The translations under genes were made by a program, and so were the position numbers. From IMG/VR virus record IMGVR_UViG_3300032277_000005, positions 1 through 52,702 of that record: a DNA stretch of 52,702 bases; one strand, 5' to 3'. The notes under the pieces are model-generated. The model did no database searches. It had not been told where the DNA came from and worked only from the letters and a program-made list of their open reading frames with translations. How positions within the stretch are numbered: position 1 is the stretch's first letter; every line of letters begins with the position of its first letter. Of this stretch, positions 1 through 22,537 are shown piece by piece. This DNA comes from a virus (Duplodnaviria; Caudoviricetes).

Positions 1-68
1 TAACCCTTAAAGCAGCGCGTTGATTTGAGCGCAGCGAAAAGCAATCCGCCTGACTTTTGTTGTTAGGC
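1..68 (-). mobile_element. attC-like site (complete copy at 52573..52643)
   Basis: Minus reading across the origin: GCCTAAC-AACAA-AAGTCAGG...GCTGCTT-TAAGG-GTTAAGC (R''-spacer-L''...L'-spacer-R'). Confidence 0.85.
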
Positions 69-127
69 TCAGGAATTACGGTACATACTATGAATGACGA
101 TGAACTAATAGCAAAGATAAGTGAAAA
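1..127. repeat. 127-bp terminal direct repeat (copy 1); circular-assembly overlap
   Basis: 1..127 is identical to 52576..52702. Confidence 0.95.
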
Positions 128-452
128 ACTCCTCGGCTACAGGGAAGGAAGCCCAGAAAACATTATCTGTAAGATAGACGCAATGCAAGATAGAGACTCA
201 ACTCTGTGGATAGGTGCATTCCGCTATTACTGTGGTCGCATGACAATAGCTGTAAGCGGATTTTGCGAAACAATGATCAGCAACATTGAAAACATTCCAG
301 ATGAAGCAGTGTCAATAATTAAGCGCGACCTAATTGAGGCTTTTGCTGATGACGACCGGGATCGCGAAGTTGGGAATGCCGTAAAACGACTTGGTATGGA
401 CTGCGATCGGCAGAAATGGCTGGAGGTTCTAGCCGCGATAAGCGGAGCCTAA
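90..452 (+). CDS. cassette-borne hypothetical protein
   Basis: ORF 57..452, likely ATG at 90; bounded by GTTAGGCTC (62) and GAGCCTAAC (445-453). Confidence 0.75.
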   Translation: MNDDELIAKISEKLLGYREGSPENIICKIDAMQDRDSTLWIGAFRYYCGRMTIAVSGFCETMISNIENIPDEAVSIIKRDLIEAFADDDRDREVGNAVKRLGMDCDRQKWLEVLAAISGA

Positions 453-499
453 CAAAGAGATAGACGGCGCACCGCGTCCGTTGCATCGAGGTGTTATGA
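447..499 (-). mobile_element. attC-like site (short family A)
   Basis: GCCTAAC...GTTATGA hairpin; shares AGAGAT..GCATCGAGG(T/C)GTTA with sites at 2317 and 44279. Confidence 0.8.
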
Positions 500-589
500 G
501 TAATACAAGCGAACATTAAATAACGGAGATAATATGAAAACACTAGAAGAAGTACAAGCGCAGTTACTAGGCGAGAAGGAGAGTAAGTA

Positions 590-1336
590 ATGCCTAAAAT
601 CGTGAACATGGAAGGGCTAAAGTTTGGAATGTTATCCGTTGTAAATAGGGCTGGGGTCAATAGTGATGGGAGGGTAACATGGCATTGCCAGTGTGATTGC
701 GGCAATGAAAAAGTGGTTAGTGGTAAAGCCATGAGAGGGGGGGAGACTTCAAGCTGTGGCTGTCTTCGCTGGGGCGATAAACGGAAAGCGGATGACATGA
801 AAATCACAAAAGCAGACATCGAAGCAGTAGTAACGTATAACCCTGAAACCGGCGCACTGATATGGAAGGAGCGCACAGCAGAGCAGTTTGAAGATAAAAA
901 TCTTCGGCGCGCATGGAATGATCAATGGGCGGGCGGCAAAGCAGGCCACTTCGAGGCAGACGAAGGGCATGTTAGGTTGAAAATAAAAAACAGGCAGATC
1001 TACGCTCGTAGAGCTATTTACATTCTAATGACCGGGAGAAACCCACCAGGGCCATTGATATTAAAAGATGGGGACAAGGGTAATTTAAAATGGGCAAATA
1101 TCGCTGTTAAAGAAACAAAGAAGTCTCTAGCAGAGAAAAGAGCGGCGCGACTCGCAGCAAGAAAGCCTAAGCCTGTATATCCAGGTGTAGTCTATGACTG
1201 GTATGACAAGAAATGGTTAGCTGTGATAAATCTAGCCAAGTTCGTCACTATCAGGGTTGGTGTATTCGCAACAGACAGCGAGGCTATCAAGGCCAGGGCT
1301 GATAAGCTGGAATCAATGGGGCTGGCTAGCTGTTGA
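590..1336 (+). CDS. HNH/AP2-type homing-endonuclease-like protein, HNH residues degenerate
   Basis: N-terminal FGMLSV..WHCQCDCG..SCGC motif; YNPETGALIW; HNH-like segment lacking His; C-terminal YPGV..KKWLAVI..GVF AP2-like region. Confidence 0.75.
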   Translation: MPKIVNMEGLKFGMLSVVNRAGVNSDGRVTWHCQCDCGNEKVVSGKAMRGGETSSCGCLRWGDKRKADDMKITKADIEAVVTYNPETGALIWKERTAEQFEDKNLRRAWNDQWAGGKAGHFEADEGHVRLKIKNRQIYARRAIYILMTGRNPPGPLILKDGDKGNLKWANIAVKETKKSLAEKRAARLAARKPKPVYPGVVYDWYDKKWLAVINLAKFVTIRVGVFATDSEAIKARADKLESMGLASC

Positions 1337-1351
1337 TGAGAAGGTGAGCAT

Positions 1352-1425
1352 TTATAACCCCTTGCTATGCGGCGCGACGTTAGGATCGTCCGGCGCGTAG
1401 CGCGAACATGAGCAAGTTGTTATGG
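1352..1425 (-). mobile_element. attC-like site
   Basis: Minus reading CCATAAC-AACTT-GCTCATGT...GCATAGC-AAGGG-GTTATAA; extra C in L''. Confidence 0.85.
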
Positions 1426-1811
1426 CGGATTTGCACAACATTAACGACCACATGGCAAGATATTGTGAGTGTGGATGCGTGAGATTTAACCTGCTGCGTA
1501 GTGGCGCTATTGAGTGCGACGACTGCCAGCTTAAACAACCAAAACTAAATTGGAGTGAAGACATGAACCCGGATTACAAACCAGAAGCAGAAGTAACTTT
1601 TAGCGATGACCAGATTGAGCAAGGCAAGGAAATTATTCGCGCGGCGATAACCAAAAATCAGCAGTGCTTTTGGCCTGACATTGTTGCAGAGGGTAACGGC
1701 TCTCTGCCTGCTTGGGTGCTACTTAAAGCGATCAGTGAAATGCAGAAAACAAAAGAGCTACGCTTGCGCGAAGACAGCTACGAACACGCAATGGAATATA
1801 TTTTGCGGTGA
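1422..1811 (+). CDS. cassette-borne hypothetical protein with CxCxC/CxxC zinc motif
   Basis: ORF; ends GTTATGGC (1419) and GCCATAAC (1812). Confidence 0.7.
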   Translation: MADLHNINDHMARYCECGCVRFNLLRSGAIECDDCQLKQPKLNWSEDMNPDYKPEAEVTFSDDQIEQGKEIIRAAITKNQQCFWPDIVAEGNGSLPAWVLLKAISEMQKTKELRLREDSYEHAMEYILR

Positions 1812-1812
1812 G

Positions 1813-1875
1813 CCATAACGCCATAGCTAAATGGGCCACGCAGTTTGTGGCTCCAATTTCAGTGACTTGTTATAC
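1813..1875 (-). mobile_element. attC-like site
   Basis: Minus reading GTATAAC-AAGTC-ACTGAAAT...ATTTAGC-TATGGC-GTTATGG; 40 bp identical to the site at 45606. Confidence 0.9.
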
Positions 1876-1889
1876 GAGGATAAATAAAG

Positions 1890-2075
1890 ATGGATAGAAG
1901 AAACGAAGACTACGAGCTAGCTGCAAAAATTGTTGACGAAGTGCTAAATAAGTCAAGCTTGCATAGACTACCTCACGAAGACGGGACATCTCCAACCTAC
2001 TGCCTTGGGCTAGAGGAAGGAGGAACTCTGCCATATATTGCGGAGCTGTTAGCTAAACACAGGCTTGGCGTATAA
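1890..2075 (+). CDS. cassette-borne hypothetical protein
   Basis: RBS GAGG; ends GTTATACG and CGTATAAC; stop overlaps TAAC. Confidence 0.7.
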   Translation: MDRRNEDYELAAKIVDEVLNKSSLHRLPHEDGTSPTYCLGLEEGGTLPYIAELLAKHRLGV

Positions 2076-2130
2076 CGCTTTAATTAAAAGGCTGCGCTTT
2101 TCGCAGTCCGTTTTGAACTACTTGTTAGCT
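2070..2130 (-). mobile_element. attC-like site
   Basis: Minus reading AGCTAAC-AAGTA-GTTCAAAA-CGGACTGCG..CGCAGCC-TTTTAAT-TAAAGC-GTTATAC; textbook attC spacing. Confidence 0.9.
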
Positions 2131-2142
2131 GTGGAGGCTACG

Positions 2143-2322
2143 ATGAAAAAACCAACGATTGATGATTTGAAAAAAGAGCTTGAAGCTGCAAGCAAGCGGA
2201 TAGAAATTCAAGAACGGTATTTAACTGAAGCGGACACTGTGCGCCGACTTATTGTTGCAGCGGGGCTGATTGATGAGGATAAGTTTCGACAAGCAGAGGA
2301 ACTTATAAGTAAGGACAGCTAA
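2143..2322 (+). CDS. cassette-borne small coiled-coil protein
   Basis: GGAGG RBS then ATG 2143 (MKKPTIDDLKKEL); ends GTTAGCTGT and ACAGCTAAC. Confidence 0.7.
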   Translation: MKKPTIDDLKKELEAASKRIEIQERYLTEADTVRRLIVAAGLIDEDKFRQAEELISKDS

Positions 2323-2369
2323 CAGAGAGATCGGAGGCGCGTAGCGACCTCTGCATCGAGGCGTTATAG
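2317..2369 (-). mobile_element. attC-like site (family A)
   Basis: AGCTAAC-AGAGAGATC...GCATCGAGGC-GTTATAG. Confidence 0.8.
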
Positions 2370-2546
2370 ACCCGCAACAATACGGAGTGAAAGGCAATAT
2401 GAGGATAGGACAAGGCATAGCTCGTGCTGCGCTTGTGGCCGGGGCTACAGTGCTTGAGATTTTTGACAAGCCAGCGGCGGGTTTGTGGGCCGTTATTGTT
2501 GTATGGGTTTTCCTAGCAGACTGGCACCTAAAAGAGATAGGCAAAG

Positions 2547-3029
2547 ATGACTAACCCAACACACATAACAGCAGACACCCTGCCCGGCATTATCGACAAC
2601 CTGAAAGCGGCTTGTGAGTCAGACAAAGATTACCAGTCGTCAATAACGCTGTTCGATAACTCACTGAAAGCCCGCCAGAGGGCGCTGGCTAACTGTTGGT
2701 ACAAAGATATAGCCGATAGCGAGGGTTATACATCAGGCTACGCAGAGGCGCTTTGCAAATATCATTACGGGTTCCGCATCAGGTGTGAGAATGACCCGGA
2801 TTTAGAGCGCATTATTCGCAGTATGCTTGACGGCAGGGCCTACGATGCAAAGCTTAAAATAATAGAGGTGTATCGTGAGTTCTTCCCAATACTGAGAAGC
2901 AAAGACGGAATGTCCACAGAGCAGCAAGGCCGATACCTATTCGAGATACAGCGCGGTATGGGTGCAGAGGGAATATTCCTATCAACACCTAAAGAGCGAT
3001 CACTATTGAGTTACCCGGAGGCAGGATAA
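2547..3029 (+). CDS. NinB/YbcN-like recombination protein
   Basis: SLKARQRALANCWYKDIA and STEQQGRYL..I motifs; position among nin-like genes. Confidence 0.55.
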   Translation: MTNPTHITADTLPGIIDNLKAACESDKDYQSSITLFDNSLKARQRALANCWYKDIADSEGYTSGYAEALCKYHYGFRIRCENDPDLERIIRSMLDGRAYDAKLKIIEVYREFFPILRSKDGMSTEQQGRYLFEIQRGMGAEGIFLSTPKERSLLSYPEAG

Positions 3030-3307
3030 TGGCTAAGAAAACAAAAATAAGGCAGTCAGCTAGAAACGAGGCTTGTTCGCTTCGCGTATCGCCACAGTGC
3101 CAAGATGGCGAGACAGTTGTTTTCTGCCATCTAAACAGCCCGAACAAAGGCATGGGCATCAAAAGCCCTGATATTTTCGGCGTGTACGGCTGCTACTGGT
3201 GTCATCAACAACTTGACTCAGGCAATGTAAATTACAGCGACAAACTAAGGGCGCTGATGGAAACACAATACAAGCTGGTCGAAAAAGGGCTTATTAGTTA
3301 TGGGTAA
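3029..3307 (+). CDS. DUF1364/YbcO-like HNH-fold protein
   Basis: IRQSARNEACSLR..C..ETVVFCHL..GMGIK..D..GCYWCH. Confidence 0.75.
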   Translation: MAKKTKIRQSARNEACSLRVSPQCQDGETVVFCHLNSPNKGMGIKSPDIFGVYGCYWCHQQLDSGNVNYSDKLRALMETQYKLVEKGLISYG

Positions 3308-3743
3308 GAATGTTGTTATCGGGTGTGACCCAGACTCAAAAGCTCATGGCGTGGCTGTTTACATGGATGGGAGGTTGATAGAGCTACGCAGCTTTGAGCT
3401 GCTAGAGCTACAGCAATACATCGAGCAGGACTGTTGTGGTTCTAACAGTATAGAGCTGCATATCGAAAATGTTTGCGGGGTAAGTGCGGCATTCAACGCA
3501 AGGGATAGGAAAACAAATCTCAATGTGAAGTTAAAAATTGCGCAGCATATTGGAATGTGCAAGCAAGCCCAGGTTGAAGTTGAAAGAATGGCTGAGGCTA
3601 ACGGCGTGAAAGTAGTTAAGCACAAAATATCTAAGATGTGGAAAAAAGACAAAGCGCAATTTGAGAAGGTAACAGGCTGGAGTGGGCATAGTAATGAAGA
3701 CACGCGCAGTGCAAGCTGGTTTGGCTATCTAGGCTGTAAATAA
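3300..3743 (+). CDS. RuvC-like Holliday junction resolvase
   Basis: IGCDP, HIEN and NEDTRSA acidic motifs of the RNase H fold. Confidence 0.55.
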   Translation: MGKNVVIGCDPDSKAHGVAVYMDGRLIELRSFELLELQQYIEQDCCGSNSIELHIENVCGVSAAFNARDRKTNLNVKLKIAQHIGMCKQAQVEVERMAEANGVKVVKHKISKMWKKDKAQFEKVTGWSGHSNEDTRSASWFGYLGCK

Positions 3744-3757
3744 ATATAAATTAGCGC

Positions 3758-3786
3758 TTGCATTAGCGCACATAATATAGTATACT
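3758..3786 (+). promoter_or_regulatory. sigma70-type promoter
   Basis: TTGCAT-17 bp-TATACT, followed by a CCAGC..GCTGG hairpin and GGAG RBS. Confidence 0.65.
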
Positions 3787-3834
3787 GGTTTCACCAGCTA
3801 AGGGAAGCTGGCTTTTATTAAACCGGAGAAAGCT

Positions 3835-4071
3835 ATGATTTATGCACAAGTTGGAACAATGCGGAAGGCAGGGTTAGCCGCGAAGTGGGGAAGGTTGAAA
3901 GGAGGTGCGCCAGCCATGTTTGTTAGGAACCCGGCTAGCGACCTAAAACACCAGCGGGAAAAGTGGTGGCATTTTGACGAGGCCATGCAAAAGTTAATGA
4001 CCGCCGAGGGAGTGGTCAAAGGGTTTGATTCTGCGACGTTGTTGGGGGGTATTTTTAGCATTAAAGCATGA
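3835..4071 (+). CDS. hypothetical protein
   Basis: ORF with RBS downstream of promoter. Confidence 0.6.
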   Translation: MIYAQVGTMRKAGLAAKWGRLKGGAPAMFVRNPASDLKHQREKWWHFDEAMQKLMTAEGVVKGFDSATLLGGIFSIKA

Positions 4072-4319
4072 ATGATTGCGATTATTGCAGAGACAGCGAC
4101 GGCGACCTATATAGTTGCCCGAACTGTCACGGCGAAGGATTTAATATAATGACACCAAAAACAAACGCACAACTACAAAAGACCCGCGACGATAAGCAGC
4201 GGGCAATGGGGCGCACTGGGCGCAAGGTCTGGGCGACACCAGAGGAACACGCGCATATTAATCAATGCCTGGCCAAGTACCGAAAAAAGCAGGAAAGGCT
4301 AGCAAGGAAAGCACAATGA
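4068..4319 (+). CDS. hypothetical protein with CxxC pairs
   Basis: ORF coupled by ATGA overlap. Confidence 0.55.
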   Translation: MNDCDYCRDSDGDLYSCPNCHGEGFNIMTPKTNAQLQKTRDDKQRAMGRTGRKVWATPEEHAHINQCLAKYRKKQERLARKAQ

Positions 4320-4675
4320 CTGACATAACCGGAACATGGGCCACCATCCCCGACTGCCCTAAGTACGAGTGCCTTTACGATCAGTCGAAGGGTACAAAGG
4401 TGCGGTTTAAAAAGACGGGGCCCGCTATACGCAACGGGATTAGCCGAAACGGCAGAAAGGCTGGCAAGTATTTAGAGGTTGGGCATGATGGGATGTTGGC
4501 TATAAAAAATCACCCAAACATGATGGCTTGTAGATGGACACCGCAAGAGTTGTGGGAGCACACATTTAAAAGCAAGCGCCTAATCACACCGGCAGAGCGC
4601 AAAGAAATCAGAATGCGCGAGGCGGCAGAGAGAAGGGCAGCAAATCAACTAAACAGGGATATGATAAGTGAGTGA
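4316..4675 (+). CDS. hypothetical protein, NUMOD4-like N-terminus
   Basis: Likely ATG at 4316 (MTDITGTWATIPDCPKYE). Confidence 0.5.
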   Translation: MTDITGTWATIPDCPKYECLYDQSKGTKVRFKKTGPAIRNGISRNGRKAGKYLEVGHDGMLAIKNHPNMMACRWTPQELWEHTFKSKRLITPAERKEIRMREAAERRAANQLNRDMISE

Positions 4676-5096
4676 AATAATGAAGATCAGGCTGCTGTCT
4701 GATTCAGCGACAGTACCAAGCAGGGCGACCAAGGGCAGCGCTGGTTATGACCTGAGTTGTGACAAGGGTTTTATCCTACAGCCCAATGAGCGGCGACTGA
4801 TCGGCACTGGGTTGGCTATAACGCTGCCTGTAGGGTCGTGGGGCGAAGTAAGGTCACGATCAGGGTTGGCGTCAAAGTACGGCATCGACGTTCAGGCAGG
4901 GACGATAGACCAGGATTATATCGGGGAGTTAATGGTGCTGCTGGTTAACAACGGCAATAGGCCGCTACGGTGTGAAACCGGCGACAGGATTGCACAGCTA
5001 GTCGTCCAAAAATGCATGAAGCCAAATATTATGGTAGTGCCGTCGCTGGATAAAACAGACCGTGGCGATGGTGGCTTTGGGCACACTGGGAAATAA
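4668..5096 (+). CDS. dut: trimeric dUTPase
   Basis: All five motifs: AGYDL, RSG, GTIDQDYIGE, GDRIAQL, RGDGGFGHTG. Confidence 0.95.
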   Translation: MSEIMKIRLLSDSATVPSRATKGSAGYDLSCDKGFILQPNERRLIGTGLAITLPVGSWGEVRSRSGLASKYGIDVQAGTIDQDYIGELMVLLVNNGNRPLRCETGDRIAQLVVQKCMKPNIMVVPSLDKTDRGDGGFGHTGK

Positions 5097-5151
5097 CGCT
5101 TTAGCTAAATCGCGCAGCGTAGCGGAGTCGAATTTCAGCGCGTTGTTAGGC
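5091..5151 (-). mobile_element. attC-like site abutting the dut stop codon
   Basis: Minus reading GCCTAAC-AACGC-GCTGAAAT...ATTTAGC-TAAAGC-GTTATTT. Confidence 0.9.
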
Positions 5152-5164
5152 GCATTACGGAGTA

Positions 5165-5395
5165 ATGAGAATGGGCATAAATAGATATAAAAAAGACCAC
5201 AATATAGATGGGTGGCATGTAGTGGACACTGAGCGCGGAGGGATATTGCACGCCGATGATATTGTTAAACGCTTAAACGAATATGAGGCTCTTTTGGCTG
5301 AGGCCGATGAGTACTTAAGCATCAATGAATTAACAAGCATTGGCAGTGGAAGCATTCTTCATCAGAAGTTTATAGCGATAACAGGCAAATACTAA
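5165..5395 (+). CDS. cassette-borne hypothetical protein
   Basis: ORF; ends GTTAGGCG (5145) and CGCCTAAC (5396-5403). Confidence 0.7.
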   Translation: MRMGINRYKKDHNIDGWHVVDTERGGILHADDIVKRLNEYEALLAEADEYLSINELTSIGSGSILHQKFIAITGKY

Positions 5396-5442
5396 CGCCT
5401 AACAGCACAGGCAAGCTAGCTGCAATCAACAGGGCAACCCCA

Positions 5443-5685
5443 ATGAACCCAACACTTAAATACAGATGCGGAGAGTGCGGCGACTCGCACAACGACCACG
5501 ACGAAGCACTCGAGTGCTGCCCTCCACAAATAAACGAAGTGTATCTGTGTGGGCACTGCCATGAAGACTACGGCCACGACGAAGACGCCGCCGAAAATTG
5601 CTGCGATGACGTTGACCCGGACGCCCTACCAATAGTAAGCCAACAAGAACTCGAAGCTGCAGGCCAAATGAGGCTCTGCGCATAA
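5443..5685 (+). CDS. Cys-rich acidic small protein
   Basis: Two CxxC...CC repeats. Confidence 0.7.
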   Translation: MNPTLKYRCGECGDSHNDHDEALECCPPQINEVYLCGHCHEDYGHDEDAAENCCDDVDPDALPIVSQQELEAAGQMRLCA

Positions 5686-5738
5686 CGCTTTAGGTAAAGC
5701 GCCGAGGTACGAGGTCGATTTTGACCGACTTGTTATAT
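5680..5738 (-). mobile_element. attC-like site
   Basis: Minus reading ATATAAC-AAGTC-GGTCAAAA...CTTTACC-TAAAGC-GTTATGC. Confidence 0.9.
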
Positions 5739-5751
5739 TTTGGAGGTTGGT

Positions 5752-5940
5752 ATGAAATTTGAAGATAGCACTGGATGGATTTGGTTTTTTGTTGACGAGT
5801 ATGGCGATGTAGGCACTGAATTTTTTTGGCTTGAAGAAAAGGAAGGTGAAATGCCGTACCAAATGGAAAAGGCTAGTTGGGATACTGAGAATAAAAGCTC
5901 TATACCAACAAGGGCAAGAATAGCGGAATTAAAGATATAA
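5752..5940 (+). CDS. cassette-borne hypothetical protein
   Basis: GGAGG RBS and ATG 5752; ends GTTATAT and ATATAAC. Confidence 0.7.
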   Translation: MKFEDSTGWIWFFVDEYGDVGTEFFWLEEKEGEMPYQMEKASWDTENKSSIPTRARIAELKI

Positions 5941-6022
5941 CCGCGGATTTAACCGGAGAGGAATGGAGCAATGAGTGAAACGAATAGCGGAATGACGAAT
6001 CCGGTTGAAACCTTTGTTAGGG
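5935..6022 (-). mobile_element. attC-like site (family B) encoding RBS, ATG and leader of the next gene
   Basis: ATATAAC...GGAG..ATGAGTGAAACG...GACGAATCCG...GTTAGGG. Confidence 0.85.
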
Positions 6023-6306
6023 TGCCGTGGCCTGAGGATAAATTGCCCTTGAAATTGAAAAACCCTAAGTGCCCGATTTGTGGCGGGGCATTATTTATTA
6101 CTGGGGTTAACGCTTGTGAGCAGGAGGATAACGGCGACTGGATAGCAAGCGAGATTGACATTGATTGCGAAAACGAGCCGGACATTGACAGTGACGAATG
6201 GGAAGACTGGCACAAGTGGCACTACAGCATGCCATATGTGGATTGGCTGCCGATAGACCGGCAGATTTTGAAAATGGTGCAGAGGACGTTTTACTTTGCA
6301 CCCTAA
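5971..6306 (+). CDS. cassette-borne zinc-ribbon protein starting inside attC
   Basis: CPICGG motif; ends GTTAGGGTGC and GCACCCTAAC. Confidence 0.7.
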   Translation: MSETNSGMTNPVETFVRVPWPEDKLPLKLKNPKCPICGGALFITGVNACEQEDNGDWIASEIDIDCENEPDIDSDEWEDWHKWHYSMPYVDWLPIDRQILKMVQRTFYFAP

Positions 6307-6360
6307 CCTTTACTTAACCGGTGCAGCTTTGCTGCATCCGCGTTTAAGTTGTTGTTATGT
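6301..6360 (-). mobile_element. attC-like site
   Basis: Minus reading ACATAAC-AACAA-CTTAAACGCGGATGCAGC-AAA-GCTGCACCGGTTAAG-TAAAG-GTTAGGG. Confidence 0.9.
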
Positions 6361-6383
6361 TTCGATTGTACAGATTCTAAGCT

Positions 6384-6445
6384 GTGAACTTATTTCACTT
6401 TATTTGTGTTATTTGCTTGACTATGTGAACTTAGTGCACTATAAT
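6384..6445 (+). promoter_or_regulatory. cassette-internal sigma70 promoter with two operator-like imperfect palindromes
   Basis: TTGACT(6417)-17 bp-TATAAT(6440); GTGAACTTATTTCAC (6384) and GTGAACTTAGTGCAC (6425). Confidence 0.8.
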
Positions 6446-6492
6446 TAGTTTCAAGAGTTAGGGAATGGCCCTAACAAAACGGAGCTAAGACA

Positions 6493-6681
6493 ATGATTAA
6501 ATCAGTAGACGAACTAAAAGCAGGCGACATTCTTAAAAACACTAATCATGGTTTTGAGATTGAAATTAAAGAGATTGGTAAAAAGAACACCCGCTACATC
6601 AACTTAGAGACTGGTGAGAAAGTAAAAAGCTTCACTACAAAATTCAACTTCATGCTACGCGAAGGAGTGTTTGTTAAGTGA
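6493..6681 (+). CDS. small basic hypothetical protein
   Basis: GGAG RBS; first gene of the promoter-bearing cassette. Confidence 0.7.
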   Translation: MIKSVDELKAGDILKNTNHGFEIEIKEIGKKNTRYINLETGEKVKSFTTKFNFMLREGVFVK

Positions 6682-7121
6682 ACGCAAAACAGACCAGATT
6701 AGCCCGACAAATGCTGGGCTTAAACCAAACCGAGTTTGCTGCACTGCTTGGCTGGACAAGCAAAAGAAACATAGTGAATTTAGAGCGCGGCGATAAAGAA
6801 GTAATGACACAAACAGCTTTAGCAATTGAATGCTTACTAAGAAGAAATAACAAATTTGGAGAGTTTGAGATGATTAATAAAATGCAGCCAGTTTTGGATT
6901 TTATATTAACTGAGATTAAGCGCGTTAATGGAAGCCGATCCGACAATACCACCATTTCTCAAGACGAAACAAATCAAGAGCTGGTTGATATTTTTCACGA
7001 TACTGCAAATAAGTTTACTGATATTGACTTTGAATTAACTGACAGCGAGGACGATCTAATAGAGCTTTTTGGCTACAAGGGCTATTGCTCTATTCGTGAA
7101 GCTGAAAGCGGTGCGTATTAG
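6678..7121 (+). CDS. XRE-family HTH regulator with C-terminal extension
   Basis: ARQMLGLNQTEFAALLG..IVNLERG. Confidence 0.8.
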   Translation: MNAKQTRLARQMLGLNQTEFAALLGWTSKRNIVNLERGDKEVMTQTALAIECLLRRNNKFGEFEMINKMQPVLDFILTEIKRVNGSRSDNTTISQDETNQELVDIFHDTANKFTDIDFELTDSEDDLIELFGYKGYCSIREAESGAY

Positions 7122-7123
7122 AA

Positions 7124-7185
7124 ACATAACCGATAGCTTAACGGCTGGCGCTTTTGCCAGTCCGATTTACAGCGCCTTGTTAGGC
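7124..7185 (-). mobile_element. attC-like site
   Basis: Minus reading GCCTAAC-AAGGC-GCTGTAAA...GTTAAGC-TATCG-GTTATGT. Confidence 0.85.
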
Positions 7186-7199
7186 GCGGGAGAGACTAG

Positions 7200-7409
7200 A
7201 TGCCAGTTACAGATTACAGCGATGCCGATTTAGTTAAGCGAGCGGTAAGAAACGCAAAACCAAACATAAACGGAACCGCACCTCGATGGGTTGCCGTAAT
7301 GGATACTTTCGGCCTTGGCAGAACATACGCATACGAATTATGCCGGTTGCATGACTTGAATCCAGACGACCCGATTGAGGGCGCACGTTGTATTTCCTGC
7401 AACCCTTAG
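7200..7409 (+). CDS. cassette-borne phage hypothetical protein
   Basis: ORF; ends GTTAGGCGC and GCGCCTAAC. Confidence 0.7.
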   Translation: MPVTDYSDADLVKRAVRNAKPNINGTAPRWVAVMDTFGLGRTYAYELCRLHDLNPDDPIEGARCISCNP

Positions 7410-7410
7410 C

Positions 7411-7488
7411 GCCTAACCCCATAAACACGCGGAAACGAAACAAGCGAAGCGGCGTGTAGTGAATCGCCGTGATTTTACATTGTTATAT
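7411..7488 (-). mobile_element. attC-like site (own cassette apparently truncated)
   Basis: GCCTAAC...CACGCGG..CCGTGATTTT..GTTATAT; no matching ATATAAC end downstream. Confidence 0.75.
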
Positions 7489-7581
7489 TTTGGAGATTTT
7501 ACGATGAGTGAGTTACAAACGGTAGCGGCAAGGCTCTGCAAACAATTGAGATGTTAATTAAGGCGATGAAGGTGAGAGATA

Positions 7582-7914
7582 ATGATTAAATCAAAACGCG
7601 GCGTATCAATCGACAACTGTCGGCCCGAGATACTTATAGCCTTGATCTCAGTTGACCCTATCTATGCCAAGCATGGTGTAGATACTGTGGTCACGTCCGG
7701 GTCAGAGCCTTACAAGCACAGTGCTTTGCGCTCGGCACACTATAGGGGTGACGCTGTGGACTTGAGAATCAAAAACGTAGAGGTCGATAAAAGGGCGCGG
7801 GTATTCCAAGCAATCAAGCGCAAGTTAGGCCCGGATTTTGTTGTTCTGCACGAGGGTAAGGGTAAGGCGTGGGAGCATATTCACATTCATTGGTCGCCTA
7901 TATTCCACAGCTAG
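7582..7914 (+). CDS. endolysin, peptidase M15 family
   Basis: SAHYRGDAVD and HIH zinc-binding motifs. Confidence 0.85.
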   Translation: MIKSKRGVSIDNCRPEILIALISVDPIYAKHGVDTVVTSGSEPYKHSALRSAHYRGDAVDLRIKNVEVDKRARVFQAIKRKLGPDFVVLHEGKGKAWEHIHIHWSPIFHS

Positions 7915-7974
7915 CATAAGCTCTGGTTAGTGGTATAATGCAAAGCCTATGCGTCGCAAGGGCGCTCAAACAAG

Positions 7975-8490
7975 ATGGCCGGAATGGCATTAAGGGCAGC
8001 GATGAGTGACGACGACCAGGGTATATCTATGCTAAGAGATGAGATGTCTCAGATTAAGAGCTGGATAAAGGCGACAGATGCAACAATTAAAGGTTTTCTG
8101 TCACGACTGGTCGATGCGGAGGAGCGGGTAGCTCGCGCAGAGGAGCGAGGCGCGGCAGCCGAAGAGAAGACAGCGACCCGTATGGCTTGGCTGATTATGC
8201 TATTTATAACGAGCTTAGGCGGTCTTGTTGTGATGATGTTGGATGTTTCGGCAAGATCTGATGAAAAGATCAACGCTATCGAAGATAAAACGATGGAGGT
8301 ATTAATTGCCGTTCACGGTAGCAGCGTACTAATGCAACAACATCTCATTACCGCCGGTAATGTTAAAAAGGAGATCTATCACGCTGTTGAGGCTGTAGAA
8401 AAGTCATTGCAAACATCAATAGAAAGAACCCTCAACGCTGTAAAAGACAATAGATCCGCGATACTTAATCACGAAAGGGCGGAAAGGTAA
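7975..8490 (+). CDS. single-TM coiled-coil membrane protein (lysis region)
   Basis: Hydrophobic WLIMLFITSLGGLVVMML segment. Confidence 0.55.
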   Translation: MAGMALRAAMSDDDQGISMLRDEMSQIKSWIKATDATIKGFLSRLVDAEERVARAEERGAAAEEKTATRMAWLIMLFITSLGGLVVMMLDVSARSDEKINAIEDKTMEVLIAVHGSSVLMQQHLITAGNVKKEIYHAVEAVEKSLQTSIERTLNAVKDNRSAILNHERAER

Positions 8491-10253: not shown

Positions 10254-11327
10254 ATGGGTATTTTAATACCTAAAAGGCGAAGGATTTGGAAAGAGAAGCC
10301 CTTAGAGGGCGCTAGATTTCCTAGCTTTGTAGCGTCAGGATTTTTAATCGACGAACGATCTGGCGACCCCTTCGATCATGGAGCGCAGAGTGAAGGCGGG
10401 GCGCTTGGCACCTTTTCTTGGTTTGAAAAAGCGGGCGTTCCCGCAGTTAGCGCGACCGTTAGAGATCAATTGTGCTTATCCGGGGCAAGAAGCGCAACCA
10501 CTCATGCACTGGTTATCGATTTTACCGTAGAAGACCACGATCTTAACAACTACACAGGGTATCTATCTGGGGGGCTTCGCACCGGCACTGTTACTGGTAA
10601 TGCCACTGATGAAACCATTACGCTGGGGCCATTTGGCAGTGGTGATTACAGATATGTTAAAGATATATTTGGCCCAGGTGAATACACGCTCGTACTGTGG
10701 TTTGATGGACAGGATTACCAGTTTTCAGTTAATGGCAGTAAATTAGCTGCATTTGATGGTGCCGGTGGTGGAATAACTTATCTTGTAGATACGACTATTT
10801 CGGGGTCTGGTAAGGGCTACTCAGGAAGCCGCAGGGTATTCTATAAAAGTATTTATATAATAGATCAACCAGTTGATGATGATTTTGCAGTTTCATTATC
10901 CGAAAACCCCTACCAAATACTAAAGCCCCGCCGCAAGTTCTGGGTAGTGCCTAGTGCAACAGACACCACGGCCCCTATACTATCCTCACCCACAGGCACA
11001 AAGACCGGCAGCACTACAGCAGACGGCACAGTATCAACAGACGAAGCCAATGGCACGTTATACTATCTAGCGTCAGAGAACGCGACAGAGACAGCGGCAA
11101 CGATTAAGGCGGGTAGTAGTCAGGCGGTAACAGCAACGGGTGTGCAGAACGTATCATTCACAGGCTTAACGCCATCGACATTGTATTATGCGCACTACGT
11201 TCATGATGACGCAGCTATCAACGAATCAAATGTACAAACGAGCGCAAGCTTTACGACAGATGCCGCCTCGAGTGTAATCGCCATATTTAGACGACGAATT
11301 GAAGGGCAAGGTAATGCTTTTAGGTAA
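10254..11327 (+). CDS. putative virion protein, LamG-like plus FN3-like domain
   Basis: Beta-rich N-terminal part; DTTAPILS..TDEANGTLYY..TGLTPSTLYY FN3-like region. Confidence 0.55.
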   Translation: MGILIPKRRRIWKEKPLEGARFPSFVASGFLIDERSGDPFDHGAQSEGGALGTFSWFEKAGVPAVSATVRDQLCLSGARSATTHALVIDFTVEDHDLNNYTGYLSGGLRTGTVTGNATDETITLGPFGSGDYRYVKDIFGPGEYTLVLWFDGQDYQFSVNGSKLAAFDGAGGGITYLVDTTISGSGKGYSGSRRVFYKSIYIIDQPVDDDFAVSLSENPYQILKPRRKFWVVPSATDTTAPILSSPTGTKTGSTTADGTVSTDEANGTLYYLASENATETAATIKAGSSQAVTATGVQNVSFTGLTPSTLYYAHYVHDDAAINESNVQTSASFTTDAASSVIAIFRRRIEGQGNAFR

Positions 11328-13599
11328 ATACAACCAAGAGAAAACAGTAAGGTTTCGCCTCTTTCAAGTAGATGGTGTTGATTTTGAGTCAGCCGCTACA
11401 TTTGCCGCTGGTGATGTGAAGATCATGAAAGATGAGGGAGTGGAGGCTAACACCACCAATCTGCCCACAGATGAGGGCCAAGGCTATTCACTTGTCTTAA
11501 CCGCCACAGAAATGAGCGCGGCTCGAATAGAGATTTATATTGTCGATCAAACAGCTACAAAAGTGTGGCTCGATACCGGGTTGTCTATTGAGACCTACGG
11601 CAACGCCAGCGCAGAACACGCCTTCGACTTAGACACAGCAAGTACAGCCCAAACAGCCGATCACACAGCAGGCATTGCAGATATACCGACCGTGGCAGAA
11701 TTCAATGCGAGAACATTGGCCGCAGCGGATTACTTCGATCCAGCTACTGACACAGTTGCAGCTGTTACAACAGTTGCGAGCGTAAGCGGTTCGGTCGGTA
11801 GTGTAACTGGTAGCGTGGGAAGCGTAACGGGGGCCGTGGGCAGTGTTACAGCGCAAGTCTCGGCAGACGTAACCGCTATCAGCGGCGACTCGACGGCGGC
11901 TGATAATTTAGAGCTTCAATACGATGGAACAGGACTTGTAGGTGATACATACCCGGCCACACAAACACAGGTCGGCCAGTTATCAACAGGATCGGCGTCA
12001 ATAAGTAAAGCGGCATCTACAGCAGTTATTACAGCAGGTGCAGAGACCAACACTTACACAAGCACAAAATCGCGTGATGGTGTTTACCACGAAATTGCAG
12101 ACGCGGCTGGGGTTATTGACTTTTATTATGAATTCGATATTGGAGGCAATGGCGTAGGCGCTGATGTGCAGTTTTTTGGCAGAATGACAGGGGTAAATGA
12201 CAACCTAGATATCTTTGCTTACGATTGGGCTAATACAACATGGGATCAGGTTGGCACTACAGAAGGCGAAAATACGACAACAGATTGGGCTGGGTTCGTA
12301 AGTTTAGACGTATCGCATACTGGCACAGGTGCAAATGCGGGTAAAGTTCGCGTTAGAGCTTACAAAGCGTCAGGCTTAACGTCGGCTGTATTGTATATGG
12401 ATCAAATCTATATCAGTTACGCTGTAGTTGCTGAATCAGTTGGCTACGCTCAAGGCCGGGTGTGGATAAACACCGACGCAGCAAACACGAATACAAACCT
12501 ATACCGTGATGGCACAGCAGATAATCCAGTGAGCACCTTAACTGCGGCTAAGACGATTGCGGATAGCTTAGGAATAAAAGACTTCCACGTTACCTCAAAC
12601 TCGACGATAACATTGCTGGCCGATCTTAACGGCTACAATGTCTATGGTGTTGGGTACGCACTAAACACAGCAGGCTATGACCTTGCAGGCACACATATAT
12701 TACATTCAAGCCCTATCAACGGGACTGTAACAACAGCAGGAAGCTCTGATCACTGGGACGCGCTAGATTCGATTATAGATACAGTAACAGCCGACGACGC
12801 GCATCTTACGAATTGCATATTTATCGGTACTTACACTTTTGGCACCAGCGCCATTGTTACGCCAGAAGTCAATATGAACCACTGTAAGTCGGGCATCGCA
12901 GGAGCATCAGCCCCAGTATTCACAAAAACACCAGGCGCTACCCTCACATGGTCGGTGCGAGATTGGAAGGGAGGCATGACTATCAACGGTCTGGAAGCTG
13001 GCGATACTGTTACTATCGGTGGTGGCGAGCTAGGCACAATCACGCTTAACGGTGCAGATGCGAGTGTTGAGGTAAGGGGTATTGCTAAAGCAGTAACCAA
13101 CAATCTCACAGGGTCGCCTACAGTAAACCTCGATGGTGTTGTTATAGCCTCGGATGTGGCTAGCATATCCTCTGAGATAGGCACGGCAGGCGCAAACTTA
13201 ACCGATCTAGGCGGCATGTCCTCAACAATGAGGTCGCAGGTCAACACAGAGGCCGATACAGCCCTCACAGACTACGACGGGCCTACCAACACAGAGTTCG
13301 AGGCTAGAACCCCGACAGCGGCGCAATTAGCCTACATTGTGGCCAACGCAGCAACAGGGATGCCCGTCACATTCACTACTAGCGGCGGGTCGACTACAGC
13401 AGCGGTTTTAAATAACGTTGATGGCGCTGCGGCGAGTGCCACAGATGATCAATATAATGGAAGGTTGCTTGTATTCACTGACGGGACTCTGAAAGGGTGT
13501 GTAACAGATATAACCGATTATGTCGGGTCTACTACTACCGCAACCATCACAGCTATCCCGTTCGCGCCAGAATCCACTCATAACGCGAGACTGTTATAA
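11314..13599 (+). CDS. fibre/spike-like virion protein
   Basis: Thr/Ala/Gly-rich; SVTGSVG tandem repeats; DGTADNPVSTL motif. Confidence 0.6.
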   Translation: MLLGKYNQEKTVRFRLFQVDGVDFESAATFAAGDVKIMKDEGVEANTTNLPTDEGQGYSLVLTATEMSAARIEIYIVDQTATKVWLDTGLSIETYGNASAEHAFDLDTASTAQTADHTAGIADIPTVAEFNARTLAAADYFDPATDTVAAVTTVASVSGSVGSVTGSVGSVTGAVGSVTAQVSADVTAISGDSTAADNLELQYDGTGLVGDTYPATQTQVGQLSTGSASISKAASTAVITAGAETNTYTSTKSRDGVYHEIADAAGVIDFYYEFDIGGNGVGADVQFFGRMTGVNDNLDIFAYDWANTTWDQVGTTEGENTTTDWAGFVSLDVSHTGTGANAGKVRVRAYKASGLTSAVLYMDQIYISYAVVAESVGYAQGRVWINTDAANTNTNLYRDGTADNPVSTLTAAKTIADSLGIKDFHVTSNSTITLLADLNGYNVYGVGYALNTAGYDLAGTHILHSSPINGTVTTAGSSDHWDALDSIIDTVTADDAHLTNCIFIGTYTFGTSAIVTPEVNMNHCKSGIAGASAPVFTKTPGATLTWSVRDWKGGMTINGLEAGDTVTIGGGELGTITLNGADASVEVRGIAKAVTNNLTGSPTVNLDGVVIASDVASISSEIGTAGANLTDLGGMSSTMRSQVNTEADTALTDYDGPTNTEFEARTPTAAQLAYIVANAATGMPVTFTTSGGSTTAAVLNNVDGAAASATDDQYNGRLLVFTDGTLKGCVTDITDYVGSTTTATITAIPFAPESTHNARLL

Positions 13600-15701: not shown

Positions 15702-17169
15702 GGATAAACTAAAGACCCGGCTAGGCGACCAAGTGTGGAGGCTTAACAACCTTTACTGGATTGTGGATAAGTCAGGCCAAAAGATTAAATTCAAGATGAA
15801 CAAGCAGCAGCAGGCCTTGTTTAACGGCATGTGGTATTTAAACTTAATCCTCAAAGCGCGGCAGTTGGGAATGACGACGTTTATTCTCATTTTCATGCTG
15901 GATAGATGTCTGTTTAACTCAGACACAAAAGCCGGAGTTATCGCTCACAATAGAGAGGACGCGCAGAAATTCTTCCGGGAAAAACTAAAATACGCTTACG
16001 ACAACCTGCCTGAATGGTTGAGAGCAGAAAGGCCAGCGAAAAATGACAGGTCAGGAGAGTTGGTATTCGAGAACGGCAGCTCGGTGACCGTTGGCACATC
16101 AATGCGGTCATCATCGCTGCAATACCTGCATATCAGTGAGTTCGGCAAAGTCTGCGCAAAGTACCCAGACAAGGCCAGGGAGATAGTCACCGGCGCACTC
16201 AACGCGGTAGAGGCAGGCCAGTTTGTGTTCATTGAAAGCACAGCAGAGGGGCAGCAGGGCTATTTCTACGACTATTGCACCGAGGCTGAAAGGGCGGCGA
16301 TAGAGAAGCGCAAGCTAACAAAACTCGATTACAAGTTGTTCTTCTTCCCGTGGTGGGAGAATGAGGGTTACAGGCTAGAGGGTGATGTAATCCACACGCA
16401 GGAAACCACCGAGTATTTTGACGACCTATCGCATAAAGACGGCATCCACCTCGATAGAGAACAAAAAAACTGGTACATCAAGAAGCTATCGACGCAAAAA
16501 GACGATATGAAGCGGGAATACCCGTCAACCATCAGAGAGGCGTTCGAGCAGTCGATACAAGGCGCGTACTACGCTAAAGAAATGGCGTCAGTGCGGAATG
16601 ATGGCAGGCTCCGCAAGCTCCCCTACGAGCCATCACTACCCGTCTATGTGTTTTTTGACTTGGGCCGCAATGACTATACTTCTATGTGGTTTATGCAGGA
16701 TTACCGGGGGCAGTATAGGTTTATCCGCTATTACGAGAACAGCGGCGAGTCGATACAGTTCTACATCAAGAAGATGCAGGAGTACCAGTACGTCTATGAC
16801 ACGCTGTACTTGCCGCATGATGCTAATGTCACTGATCTCAGCCGTGCTGATAACAAATCACGGGCCGATATCGTCCGAGGTATGGGGATGAAAGTGGAGG
16901 TGGTATCAAGAGTACCGTACAAAGCAGAGGCAATACAAGCCGTCAGGGATGTGCTGCCTAAGTGCTATTTTGACGAAGAAAACGCAGCAGGCGGTGTGGC
17001 TAGCCTAGATGGGTTCAAAAAAGAGTGGAACGACAAGTTAGGCGTGTGGCGTGATGAGCCTGTAAGGAATGACGCAAAGCACGGAGCTGACGCATTTGAA
17101 CAGTTTGCGCGAGGGTACACAGCAAGAATGGATCATCAAGGCAGTTTTGAGGCAGAGGATTACGCATGA
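15691..17169 (+). CDS. terL: terminase large subunit
   Basis: LKARQLGMTT Walker A, LHISE Walker B, ESTA, FDLG nuclease, HGADAF. Confidence 0.95.
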   Translation: MTNEDKLKTRLGDQVWRLNNLYWIVDKSGQKIKFKMNKQQQALFNGMWYLNLILKARQLGMTTFILIFMLDRCLFNSDTKAGVIAHNREDAQKFFREKLKYAYDNLPEWLRAERPAKNDRSGELVFENGSSVTVGTSMRSSSLQYLHISEFGKVCAKYPDKAREIVTGALNAVEAGQFVFIESTAEGQQGYFYDYCTEAERAAIEKRKLTKLDYKLFFFPWWENEGYRLEGDVIHTQETTEYFDDLSHKDGIHLDREQKNWYIKKLSTQKDDMKREYPSTIREAFEQSIQGAYYAKEMASVRNDGRLRKLPYEPSLPVYVFFDLGRNDYTSMWFMQDYRGQYRFIRYYENSGESIQFYIKKMQEYQYVYDTLYLPHDANVTDLSRADNKSRADIVRGMGMKVEVVSRVPYKAEAIQAVRDVLPKCYFDEENAAGGVASLDGFKKEWNDKLGVWRDEPVRNDAKHGADAFEQFARGYTARMDHQGSFEAEDYA

Positions 17170-17519
17170 TTGAGGTCGATATAACACTGGACGATATGAA
17201 AGAGGCCGTGCATAACGATCAGGTGTGCAGGCATTTTGGCGCAGCTATCTCAAAAGCCTACCCTGGGCGCAAGTGGCTTGTTGAGGTGTTGGATAGAGGC
17301 TACCTCTGCTACATCAAGATTCCCACTATCTCTATGGAGTACGGTATCGCGGTGAAGTTAAGTAAAACCCTGAGAAGTGATACAATCAACTGCGTAAGAT
17401 CGGCAGGAGAGCTGCTAGAGCGATTCAAGCTAACACGCGGCCAGACTGATAACGCCGATGTATTCCAGCTACCATCGAACTACAAAGGCGTAATAGGCGC
17501 AGAGAAGGGCGAAATCTAA
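17166..17519 (+). CDS. hypothetical protein
   Basis: Coupled ORF between terL and portal. Confidence 0.65.
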   Translation: MIEVDITLDDMKEAVHNDQVCRHFGAAISKAYPGRKWLVEVLDRGYLCYIKIPTISMEYGIAVKLSKTLRSDTINCVRSAGELLERFKLTRGQTDNADVFQLPSNYKGVIGAEKGEI

Positions 17520-19669: not shown

Positions 19670-19953
19670 GCGACTTCACCGACTACGACATAGCCCTATT
19701 CGCCCAGGCTGACCTCGGAGAGCAAGCAAGAGACTTCCTGAAAACCGATATAGGCCGGTACTTAACAGGGTGCGCAGAGCAGCAGATCAATGATTGCAGC
19801 CGCGAATTGCTCAAAGTTTTGCCTAGTAACACAGATAAGATACAATTGCTACAGAACAAAGCCCTGACAGCGAGTAACTTCATTGTATGGGTACAAGAGG
19901 CTATTGATATGGGCGATGCCGCCCTTCAACAGGTGCAACAAACCGAGGGTTAA
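19666..19953 (+). CDS. hypothetical head-module protein
   Basis: Coupled ORF. Confidence 0.6.
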   Translation: MSDFTDYDIALFAQADLGEQARDFLKTDIGRYLTGCAEQQINDCSRELLKVLPSNTDKIQLLQNKALTASNFIVWVQEAIDMGDAALQQVQQTEG

Positions 19954-19956
19954 AAA

Positions 19957-21018: not shown

Positions 21019-21032
21019 TCAGGTAAATTATC

Positions 21033-21971: not shown

Positions 21972-21976
21972 TTACT

Positions 21977-21995
21977 GCCCCCTTCGGGGGGCTTT
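21977..21995 (+). terminator. intrinsic terminator
   Basis: GCCCCC stem with TTCG loop followed by TTT. Confidence 0.7.
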
Positions 21996-22010
21996 ATAGA
22001 GGAAATAATT

Positions 22011-22370
22011 ATGAGTTATGCAAACCCTACGACAGTTGGCTATCGTTTTCCGGCTGCCACATTGTCATCTGCGGCGGTAATTGGTCGCATTCAAGCACCA
22101 GACGGCAAGAAAGGTCGAGTAGTTGACGTGTCCTTGGTTACTACTACAGCAACCACAGTGGCCGCCTGTACTGTAACGATTGGCACAGGCGCAGACGCAG
22201 ACGCTTACGCGACCCAAGCTGTACCTGTTACAGCCATCAATCTTGGCGTACAAGGCACTACAGCCGTTTACAATCACGAAATCCCAGAAGACACTTTAGT
22301 ATTAGTGACTGCGGGTGGTGAGTGTACGGCTGGTGCAGGCGACGTTACTGTAATCATCGACTGGTACTAA
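22011..22370 (+). CDS. putative capsid decoration/cement protein
   Basis: Small beta-rich ORF after the capsid gene. Confidence 0.5.
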   Translation: MSYANPTTVGYRFPAATLSSAAVIGRIQAPDGKKGRVVDVSLVTTTATTVAACTVTIGTGADADAYATQAVPVTAINLGVQGTTAVYNHEIPEDTLVLVTAGGECTAGAGDVTVIIDWY

Positions 22371-22537
22371 GGAGTACATTATGAGTATTGAAGATGGCAC
22401 ATCAATGAAAGAAGGCTTCGACGCAAAGAAGCAAGGCGCTAAACCTACTGCGGTAACTCAGCGACCCTCTAAGGGTGGCGGTTTTATCAAGGAAGGCAAA
22501 GGCGGTAAAGGTAAAGGCGGCAAATAAGCCGTAAACA

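Follow-up and report, generated by a model that had tools for sequence, protein, structure and literature searches.

Integron-type gene cassettes, probably mobilized by a host integrase, in the divergent early-gene arms of an uncultured tailed phage

Genome organization

The window analyzed here is the whole 52,702-nt stretch of IMG/VR record IMGVR_UViG_3300032277_000005 (Duplodnaviria; Caudoviricetes), a complete viral genome whose two divergent early-gene arms alternate small genes with short hairpin sites of the type known from integrons as attC. It has direct terminal repeats, the opening 127 bases recurring at the record end, which leaves 52,575 unique bases (52.6 kb) with a G+C content of 48%. 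The left arm consists of small genes that run leftward on the minus strand from about 48.7 kb (43.2 to 48.7 kb), and the right arm consists of small genes that run rightward on the plus strand from about 49.5 kb, over the record ends, to 7.5 kb. Late genes occupy 7.6 to 43 kb, and the structural and lysis genes recognized are those for the large terminase, the portal, the major head protein, and an endolysin.

No tyrosine recombinase of any kind was detected in the window. Relatives of the terminase all have less than 60% identity (the best among the matches listed has 48%) and are spread over many host genera, so the host could not be named. Neither a megablast search of positions 1 to 8000 against cultured phages nor a tblastn search with the open reading frame (ORF) at 11299-13599 gave a match. 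GC skew tracks the coding strand across the window and therefore gives no readout of replication direction.

Sites in the two arms

A covariance model built from nine window sites (R1) finds 13 sites in the window, and a second model (R2), run with filters off, finds 18 distinct sites. All 18 model hits lie on the coding strand, and none falls in the 36-kb late region. Three further full sites that have no model hit (2320-2366, 44282-44324, and 7414-7485) were accepted by eye and by repeat family. The total is 21 full sites, 13 in the right arm and 8 in the left, and three partial ones (46651-46693, 49111-49175, and a bare TAAC junction at 5400). In the list below, X3 to X5 are sequencing runs with matching contigs, L numbers are other sequence records, and D numbers are repeat families.

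52073-52130, plus strand: attC-type site, first full site of the right arm; R1 26.8 bits, R2 43.4 bits
1-65, plus strand: attC-type site, the same as 52576-52640 in the 127-bp terminal repeat; R2 20 bits, E 0.035; ends TGCTTAAC / GTTAGGCTC
450-496, plus strand: short (45-nt) attC-type site, class A; R2 17.9 bits, E 0.11; its fold pairs AAC with GTT; repeat family D5
1355-1422, plus strand: attC-type site; the ATG of its GTTATG opens ORF 1422-1811; R2 22.2 bits
1816-1872, plus strand: attC-type site; R1 69.6 bits
2073-2127, plus strand: attC-type site; R1 66.8 bits
2320-2366, plus strand: short attC-type site, class A; by eye, 78% identity to 449-497 (D5), and fold
2367-5093, plus strand: multigene backbone block (YbcO-like nuclease, dUTPase, and others); Pfam YbcO; own-end run of 1 nt
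5094-5148, plus strand: attC-type site; R1 67 bits; interior 96 to 98% identical in other phage contigs, flanks different
5400-5403, plus strand: TAAC end of unit 5097-5402, abutting the backbone with no site behind it (terminal junction); GTTAGGCG / CGCCTAAC
5683-5735, plus strand: attC-type site; R1 63 bits
5938-6019, plus strand: attC-type site whose variable loop holds the ribosome-binding site (RBS) and ATG (5971) of ORF 5971-6306; R2 20.4 bits
6304-6357, plus strand: attC-type site of mobile unit 6307-7129; R1 60.4 bits; X3, X4, and X5 contigs begin at 6302-6306
6307-7129, plus strand: mobile cassette with attC, promoter (6417-6445), ORF 6493-6681, and helix-turn-helix (HTH) ORF 6678-7121; X3, X4, and X5 matches about 100%; HTH_3
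7127-7182, plus strand: attC-type site; R1 57.9 bits
7414-7485, plus strand: last site of the right arm; by eye, no model hit; matched by X3, X4, and X5 contigs
44282-44324, minus strand: short attC-type site, class A, last of the left arm; by eye
44537-44587, minus strand: attC-type site; R1 47.7 bits
44739-44814, minus strand: attC-type site holding the RBS and ATG of zinc-ribbon ORF 44585-44788; R1 42 bits
45086-45151, minus strand: attC-type site; R2 19.2 bits, E 0.055
45323-45385, minus strand: attC-type site holding the RBS and GTG start of ORF 45149-45367; R1 33.3 bits
45609-45667, minus strand: attC-type site; R1 64.1 bits
45867-45916, minus strand: attC-type site; R1 34.5 bits
46310-46388, minus strand: attC-type site holding the RBS and ATG of ORF 46170-46364; R1 25.6 bits
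46651-46693, minus strand: partial site (3′ half only), first of the left arm; 80% identity to 44738-44781 (D10)
49111-49175, plus strand: partial site (5′ half, RBS and ATG) in the central control region; 87 to 90% identity to sites in L021, L039, and L054
46834-47955, minus strand: RecT-family annealing protein, the sole recombination protein recognized; PF03837, E 1.4e-22

Read along the coding strand, a site begins with TAAC, followed by 4 to 7 unpaired bases (often GCnnT), a 9- to 10-nt arm (commonly AGyTAAAnsG), and a stem-loop of variable length; the return arm carries one or two unpaired bases and is followed by about five unpaired bases (often GnCTT) and GTTA. When the distinct sites of the window and of its relatives are taken together (59 in all), every one has TAAC and 58 have GTTA, the remaining one having CTTA. 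The L and loop stems are 93.4% paired, a figure that comes from a stem alignment fitted to the model and is more fairly compared with slid controls, which are 29 to 48% paired; compensatory changes occur in 12 of the 18 pairs, and none of 500 shuffles attains the score. The unpaired spacer corresponds to columns 5 to 12 and 133 to 138 of the alignment, and columns 122 and 128 on the 3′ arm are unpaired, with column 128, nearest the R box, being G in 37 of the 59. Lengths range from 41 to 80 nt. The sites thus have the R′/R″ repeats (AAC/GTT), the L′/L″ arms conserved in structure, and the extrahelical bases, spacer, and variable terminus by which attC sites are defined. The coding-strand fold is more stable than that of the opposite strand in 17 of the 21 full sites, and most sites are missed by a screen that demands paired AAC/GTT in an unconstrained minimum-energy fold.

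By our own reading of the frames, 15 of 22 ends have a TAAC whose TAA serves as the stop codon of the gene before it. The RBS and start codon of the downstream frame lie inside four full sites (5938-6019, 44739-44814, 45323-45385, and 46310-46388), and the truncated site at 49111 retains both; ORF 44585-44788 has no alternative start ahead of its zinc-ribbon motif. Both arms have at least two clustered attC-type sites with no intI gene nearby, or indeed anywhere in the genome, which is the definition of a cluster of attC sites lacking an integron integrase (CALIN).

Several observations concern unusual sites. The truncated site at 49111 (window 49111-49290), which belongs to class C, follows a small lipoprotein-like ORF (48931-49113), and on its 3′ side lie a G+C-rich hairpin and then a run of T. 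A minimal site of about 30 nt in contig L051 (505-540), located behind a dUTPase gene, keeps only the two consensus ends and suggests internal deletion of sites; the window dUTPase (4668-5096) has 94% amino acid identity to its L051 counterpart. A 100-nt site is common, at 96% identity, to the otherwise unrelated phages G004 (32950-33049) and G005 (37510-37608) and has GGAG eight bases 5′ of the ATG in its GTTATG end, so that, to judge from its letters, its 3′ part would serve as an RBS and start codon.

Complementarity of the two ends of each unit

Twenty units in the window have both ends. Beyond the shared GTTA/TAAC, the two ends of a unit pair over a mean of 4.2 contiguous nucleotides, and 17 of the 20 reach at least 3 nt. 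The mean is 0.72 nt for 380 pairings of ends that do not belong together (6% at 3 nt or more) and 0.48 nt for the two ends of a single integrated site (n = 21; one reaches 3 nt). None of 100,000 permutations of partners attained the observed sum of 84, the top permuted sum being 52. The units with only 1 nt of own-end pairing are 493-1355 and the multigene block 2363-5094. For the last sites of the two arms (7414-7485 and 44282-44324), no partner end was found.

These counts bear directly on the original prediction, made by inspection of this DNA, that the GTT end before a gene is the reverse complement of the AAC end after the same gene and that the two cores within one integrated site usually mismatch beyond GTTA. 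Both statements hold, and own-end pairing proved far better than random pairing in the permutations. All ten right-arm pairs that it listed were recovered in place, as were the positions of its eight left-arm pairs; the 18th pair (45382/45609) is imperfect, with 2 nt, one mismatch, and 3 nt. Circularization of the units in silico gave the same picture (DNA energy parameters): sites closed by the unit's own end have a mean fold of −14.0 kcal/mol, compared with −10.4 kcal/mol with the resident end and −10.7 kcal/mol with ends taken from other units. Closure by the own end gives a more stable fold than closure by the resident end in 16 of 19 cases, with a mean gain of 3.6 kcal/mol. In a free cassette, the R box would therefore be formed from the unit's own two ends, as expected of a mobile integron cassette.

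The same holds in related phage contigs, in which 33 intervals between adjacent model hits have a mean own-end run of 3.5 nt, compared with 0.98 nt. The sum is attained in none of 20,000 permutations, and 23 of the 33 intervals reach 3 nt. Several of the ten misses are long intervals, which probably hold undetected sites.

Match to bacterial integrons and mirrored polarity

A scan of bacterial genomes with the phage consensus pattern found at least 120 matching stretches, and many of those among the matches listed are from Luteimonas, Lysobacter, Stenotrophomonas, Rhodanobacter, and Nitrosomonas. Applied to 12 such loci, R1 gives 88 hits in tandem arrays, with scores of 30 to 51 bits for bacterial sites and 26 to 70 bits for phage sites. 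Stenotrophomonas sp. JC08 (L186) carries an integron integrase gene on the minus strand (486 bits, with a cutoff of 265), and R1, which was built from phage sites only, matches all 23 attC sites adjoining it, with E values of about 1e-10. The model that describes the phage sites thus also recognizes the attC sites of an integron that has its own intI. By their anatomy and by this cross-match to genuine integron arrays, the phage sites are attC sites.

The comparison also fixes their polarity. The 23 JC08 hits are all on the minus strand, and 20 of the 21 intervals have their cassette open frames on the plus strand; when four bacterial arrays are pooled, 48 of 57 intervals have their longest frame on the strand opposite the model hits. 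The phage arrays show the reverse: the model strand itself carries the longest frame in all 12 intervals of the window and in 5/6, 3/3, 6/6, and 3/3 intervals elsewhere. Since the model hits lie opposite the cassette genes in bacteria but on the coding strand in phages, it is the attC bottom strand that serves as the phage coding strand, with each attC positioned 5′ of its gene. The canonical layout, with the gene on the attC top strand and the attC 3′ of the gene, is not found in the window. As described in the part of Nivina 2016 (PMC5027507) that defines it, the recombined bottom strand has 5′-RYYYAAC in R′, GTTRRRY in R″, and extrahelical bases near L″ opposite AAC, and the geometry of the phage coding strand fits that definition. 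The stop codons supplied by TAAC and the start signals found inside sites are both in keeping with this arrangement.

This polarity corrects one element of the original prediction, that the cassette is opened at G|TT. The main cut is instead at AA|C on the 5′ side, and the site travels with the downstream gene. Because the coding strand is the bottom strand, the circularization at AA|C and the empty junction that were proposed alongside are the right ones.

In other respects the arrays can be compared directly with the sedentary chromosomal integrons of bacteria (JC08, Luteimonas, and Lysobacter). Both have the AAC/GTT R box, unpaired spacer, bulged L box, and variable loop in sites of about 50 to 60 nt, one or two small genes per unit, a TAA within TAAC that is often a stop codon, and R-box extensions specific to each cassette. 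The window differs in having no intI, no attI, and no cassette promoter (Pc); in having its genes on the bottom strand with the attC ahead of the gene; in having two opposed arrays, each codirectional with transcription; in mixing several attC subfamilies per array, with an RBS and start codon inside some sites; and in that phage sites show evidence of exchange at the GTT end too. The complete-integron arrangement, an intI matching TIGR02249 beside attI and Pc, is therefore absent.

Movement of units between genomes

Unit 6307-7129 is about 100% identical in short contigs of runs X3, X4, and X5, which come from three studies, with 0 to 3 differences in nearly all pieces. (The comparisons with X2 to X5 used assembled contigs, not reads, and the X3 to X5 contigs give no cover of the remaining stretch.) In X3 and X5, the matches start at 6302 or 6306 and stop at 7131 or 7132, which places both limits of the similarity no more than a few bases from TAA|C and makes the upstream attC part of the unit. 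The unlike flanks in these contigs resemble the 5′ halves of other sites of the family. A contig of X2, 99.8% identical to 1825-2323, runs on past TAAC into a variant of site 7414, joining 2323 to 7443, both of them TAA|C points, with 5,119 bases skipped. A second X2 joint, 5100 to 5717, is weak, one side having only 22 letters.

Phages G001 and G004, which have no detected protein in common, share one attC-plus-gene unit at 94% identity with TAAC on both sides; in the G004 copy, the 5′ arm is shortened. Site interiors are up to 96 to 100% identical between phages whose flanking genes differ. At the breakpoints, only 4 to 7 nt are shared, TAAC(GC) or (CTT)GTTA, and neighboring interiors come from different subfamilies. 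This is too little for homologous exchange, in agreement with what had been argued from the sequence of this genome alone, and the earlier suggestion of real excision and integration is strengthened by the presence of unit 6307-7129 beside other neighbors, by its breaks at TAA|C, and by own-end pairing above chance. About twenty of the small early genes of this phage are integron-type mobile cassettes.

The gene content of unit 6307-7129 was also examined. Its near-consensus promoter (TTGACT-17-TATAAT, 6417-6445) lies amid two 23-nt direct repeats (6383-6405 and 6424-6446) and is followed by a 62-amino-acid ORF and then a 147-amino-acid HTH_3 protein, homologues of which come only from metagenome contigs, several of them phage sized. 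The cassette could encode a regulator or a toxin-antitoxin-like pair. Among ten cassette proteins searched against Pfam, eight gave no hit, one gave a subthreshold match to DUF6581, and one gave HTH_3.

Site-bearing phages

A pattern scan of viral sequences returned 60 loci, and the 47 with no model hit were treated as chance matches. Sites of the family are present in at least 13 further viral contigs, which belong mostly to unrelated phages. Only G001 (L187/L188), a related phage of 52.8 kb, has structural genes in common with the window; blastp comparison of G002 to G005 and G011 with the window gave no hits save two weak local matches in G003 and one 18-residue overlap in G002. The RecT relatives L001 to L005 have sites in none of the five, and a blastn search of site 5094-5148 against cultured phages gave only hits with E = 4 inside genes.

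In G001, a 3.2-kb array of about seven sites (19321-22510) lies between the terminase gene and a homologue of window 17166-17519. These two genes abut in the window, which indicates that cassettes can sit inside the structural module. The first site of this array is without a TAAC end, and the array closes with a bare TAAC junction and then AGCA, as at window 5400.

Two large ORFs of 357 and 766 amino acids between the lysis genes and the terminase (window 10254-13599) have no Pfam, PHROG, or PDB relative, and the longer has 56% identity to a G001 protein. An ORF of 2,565 amino acids (35343-43040) closes the late region and has 28% identity over 697 residues to its G001 counterpart. Searches with other ORFs of no known family gave no recombinase family, no PDB relative, and only weak Atlas leads.

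Source of the recombinase

In our view, both of the divergent early-gene arms consist of genuine integron-type cassettes in arrays, that is, integrase-less attC clusters, and the recombinase acting on them is most probably a host integron integrase (a probability of roughly 0.7). Each site is a single-strand hairpin made up of the R box (TAAC/GTTA plus the cassette-specific extension), a spacer of about 5 unpaired nt, an L box bearing one or two bulges, and a variable loop. A unit then consists of C, attC, GTTA with its extension, the gene, and the complementary extension ending in TAA. It would depart as a circle, with the R box closed by the unit's own two ends, and this would explain why the ends of each gene are complementary; it would reenter at the AA|C of another site. 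That the attC lies 5′ of the gene is what would allow it to carry the RBS and start codon.

The enzyme would be an integron integrase supplied in trans by the host cell, which is the simplest reading given that none is encoded in the ten phage records. Host IntI is thus the probable recombinase, a view that is consistent, by analogy, with the reported recombination of attC sites of other phages by IntI1 (Qi 2023; PMC9892861). According to the portion of Richard et al. 2024 that deals with them, bottom strands fold and are excised more readily when they are on the lagging-strand template. One idea is that, if replication runs outward from the central region, the bottom strands of both arms would be on that template.

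Several results weigh against this interpretation. Neither the window nor nine related phage records yielded an integron integrase (TIGR02249): G001 to G004 have no tyrosine recombinase at all, and G005 and G011 to G014 have none above the IntI cutoff, G005 and G011 carrying ordinary phage-type ones below it. A metagenome scan for the 5094 subtype found six stretches, apparently all in phage-type contigs (two of them G001 and L038), with no bacterial context recognized among the six, and the one cassette protein used as a query has homologues in metagenome contigs only; judged from sequence, the attC subfamilies look phage specific. The bottom strand carries all of the cassette genes, which means that these cassettes are not plain copies from bacterial arrays. 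The contig joints include neither a 6306-to-7130 empty-site joint nor a circle junction, an absence that we do not weigh as evidence.

Finally, contigs L049 and L060 have in common a 287-nt gene module (99% identity, from near GTTA to TAAC) that is preceded by a different attC interior in each, and a 59-nt interior that is 100% identical in the two but flanked differently on both sides; the 59-nt interior of window site 52073-52130 is nearly identical in both contigs. Such separation of interior and gene is not producible by a single cut at AA|C. Some recent exchanges thus appear also to have broken at the GTT end. Either the opposite strand would sometimes be used, with a cut at G|TT that preserves own-end pairing, or another process is involved.

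A broader proposal, which we regard as tentative and rate at somewhat below even odds, is that unrelated marine and mat phages share a phage-specific "mirror integron" pool of cassettes in the reverse layout, moved by a host integrase or another enzyme using both hairpin strands. The 5′ attC would sometimes supply the translation start of the gene, and a gene module could leave with either neighboring attC interior. Such a pool would be one of the main sources of early-gene mosaicism in these phages and would give cassettes a second, independent place of origin.

It is unlikely that the sites are moved by a recombinase other than IntI, either an unrecognized phage protein or a different host enzyme active on hairpins, for example of the Xer or HUH type, with cuts possible at either end of the hairpin. 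The missing integrase, the apparently phage-specific attC subfamilies and cassette pool, the mirrored layout, and the breaks at both AA|C and G|TT would all be accounted for in this way, and many phage proteins are of no family (for example, those at 10254-13599). However, BLASTP found no protein common to the site-bearing phages G000, G002 to G005, and G011; the site architecture is that of IntI substrates feature by feature, with the model matching real integron arrays at E values of about 1e-10; and IntI1 itself recombined five of six attC sites of other phages (Qi 2023; PMC9892861).

We consider it very unlikely that the arrays are fossils, acquired once and kept for another role such as RNA hairpins for mRNA processing or translation starts, with the cassettes now immobile. 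The RBS and start codons in four sites and the several truncated sites (46651, 49111, and 5400) would fit such a history, and hairpins of the sense strand would form in mRNA too. Own-end complementarity, however, is useless to an integrated unit and yet 17 of 20 units retain it; three studies contain, in other contexts, a unit about 100% identical to one in the window, and modules 99 to 100% identical have been reassorted between L049 and L060.

The least probable explanation, which we give very little weight, is that the mosaicism stems from homologous or RecT-mediated annealing between conserved repeats or that the hairpins are plain transcription terminators: the phage does encode RecT and the site interiors are conserved repeats, but the breakpoints are at site edges that share only TAAC(GC) or (CTT)GTTA, the neighboring interiors belong to different subfamilies, annealing would not generate unit-specific inverted ends, and, in line with the original argument against simple terminators, the sites do not resemble terminators, terminator-like hits numbering 12 (versus 7.7 ± 3.1 in shuffles) and only one place (5712-5731) overlapping a coding-strand site. 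In T4-type phages, promoter/stem-loop modules flank shuffled early genes. The present arrays resemble those modules in having short conserved hairpin repeats between small early genes at the borders of swapped modules, but the T4-type modules are exchanged by homologous recombination between repeats and are not known to have AAC/GTT cores, a bulged L box, or complementary ends specific to each unit.

Comparison with published phage attC clusters

In the literature that we searched on phage attC sites, no paper other than Qi 2023 (PMC9892861) was found to be devoted to attC in phages. In the main findings of that study, 17 integrase-less attC clusters, each with at least two sites, were identified in 10,705 phage genomes, and five of six tested phage attC sites were recombined by IntI1. 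Two of its CALINs, from the virulent phages H101 (Pseudoalteromonas) and TJE1 (Tetrasphaera), likewise have attC sites and no integrase, and our phage-site model finds them at 75922-77984 (four hits) and 1019-1516 (two hits), respectively. The annotated genes of H101 are on the model strand and thus mirrored, as in the window, whereas TJE1 has the canonical orientation. The clusters described there are small (3 sites and 4 ORFs in TJE1) compared with the 21 full and 3 partial sites of the window.

The portions of the text of Qi 2023 that describe the clusters make no mention of a mirrored layout, own-end pairing, start codons within sites, or sharing among uncultured phages. The literature searched on inverted cassette orientation likewise did not describe the mirrored layout, in-attC start codons, or cassette sharing among uncultured phages. 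What is new here is the scale, the mirrored layout, and the crossovers at both site ends; the supplementary list of all 17 clusters in Qi 2023 may bear on the first of these.

Implications for phage and cassette evolution

Integrons are regarded as bacterial devices, and the attC clusters known from phages are described as rare, small features in the parts of Qi 2023 (PMC9892861) that survey them. About twenty cassette genes in one phage, together with at least 13 linked viral contigs of several unrelated phage types, suggest that phage genomes do become mosaic through site-specific cassette exchange and that phages may depend on a stress-induced host enzyme. If breaks at both ends of the sites are confirmed, replicating phage DNA would be less strict about strand choice than bacterial arrays are. 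With its start signals in the attC, the mirrored layout represents a second, differently organized set of cassettes and offers an approach to the old question of how cassettes arise.

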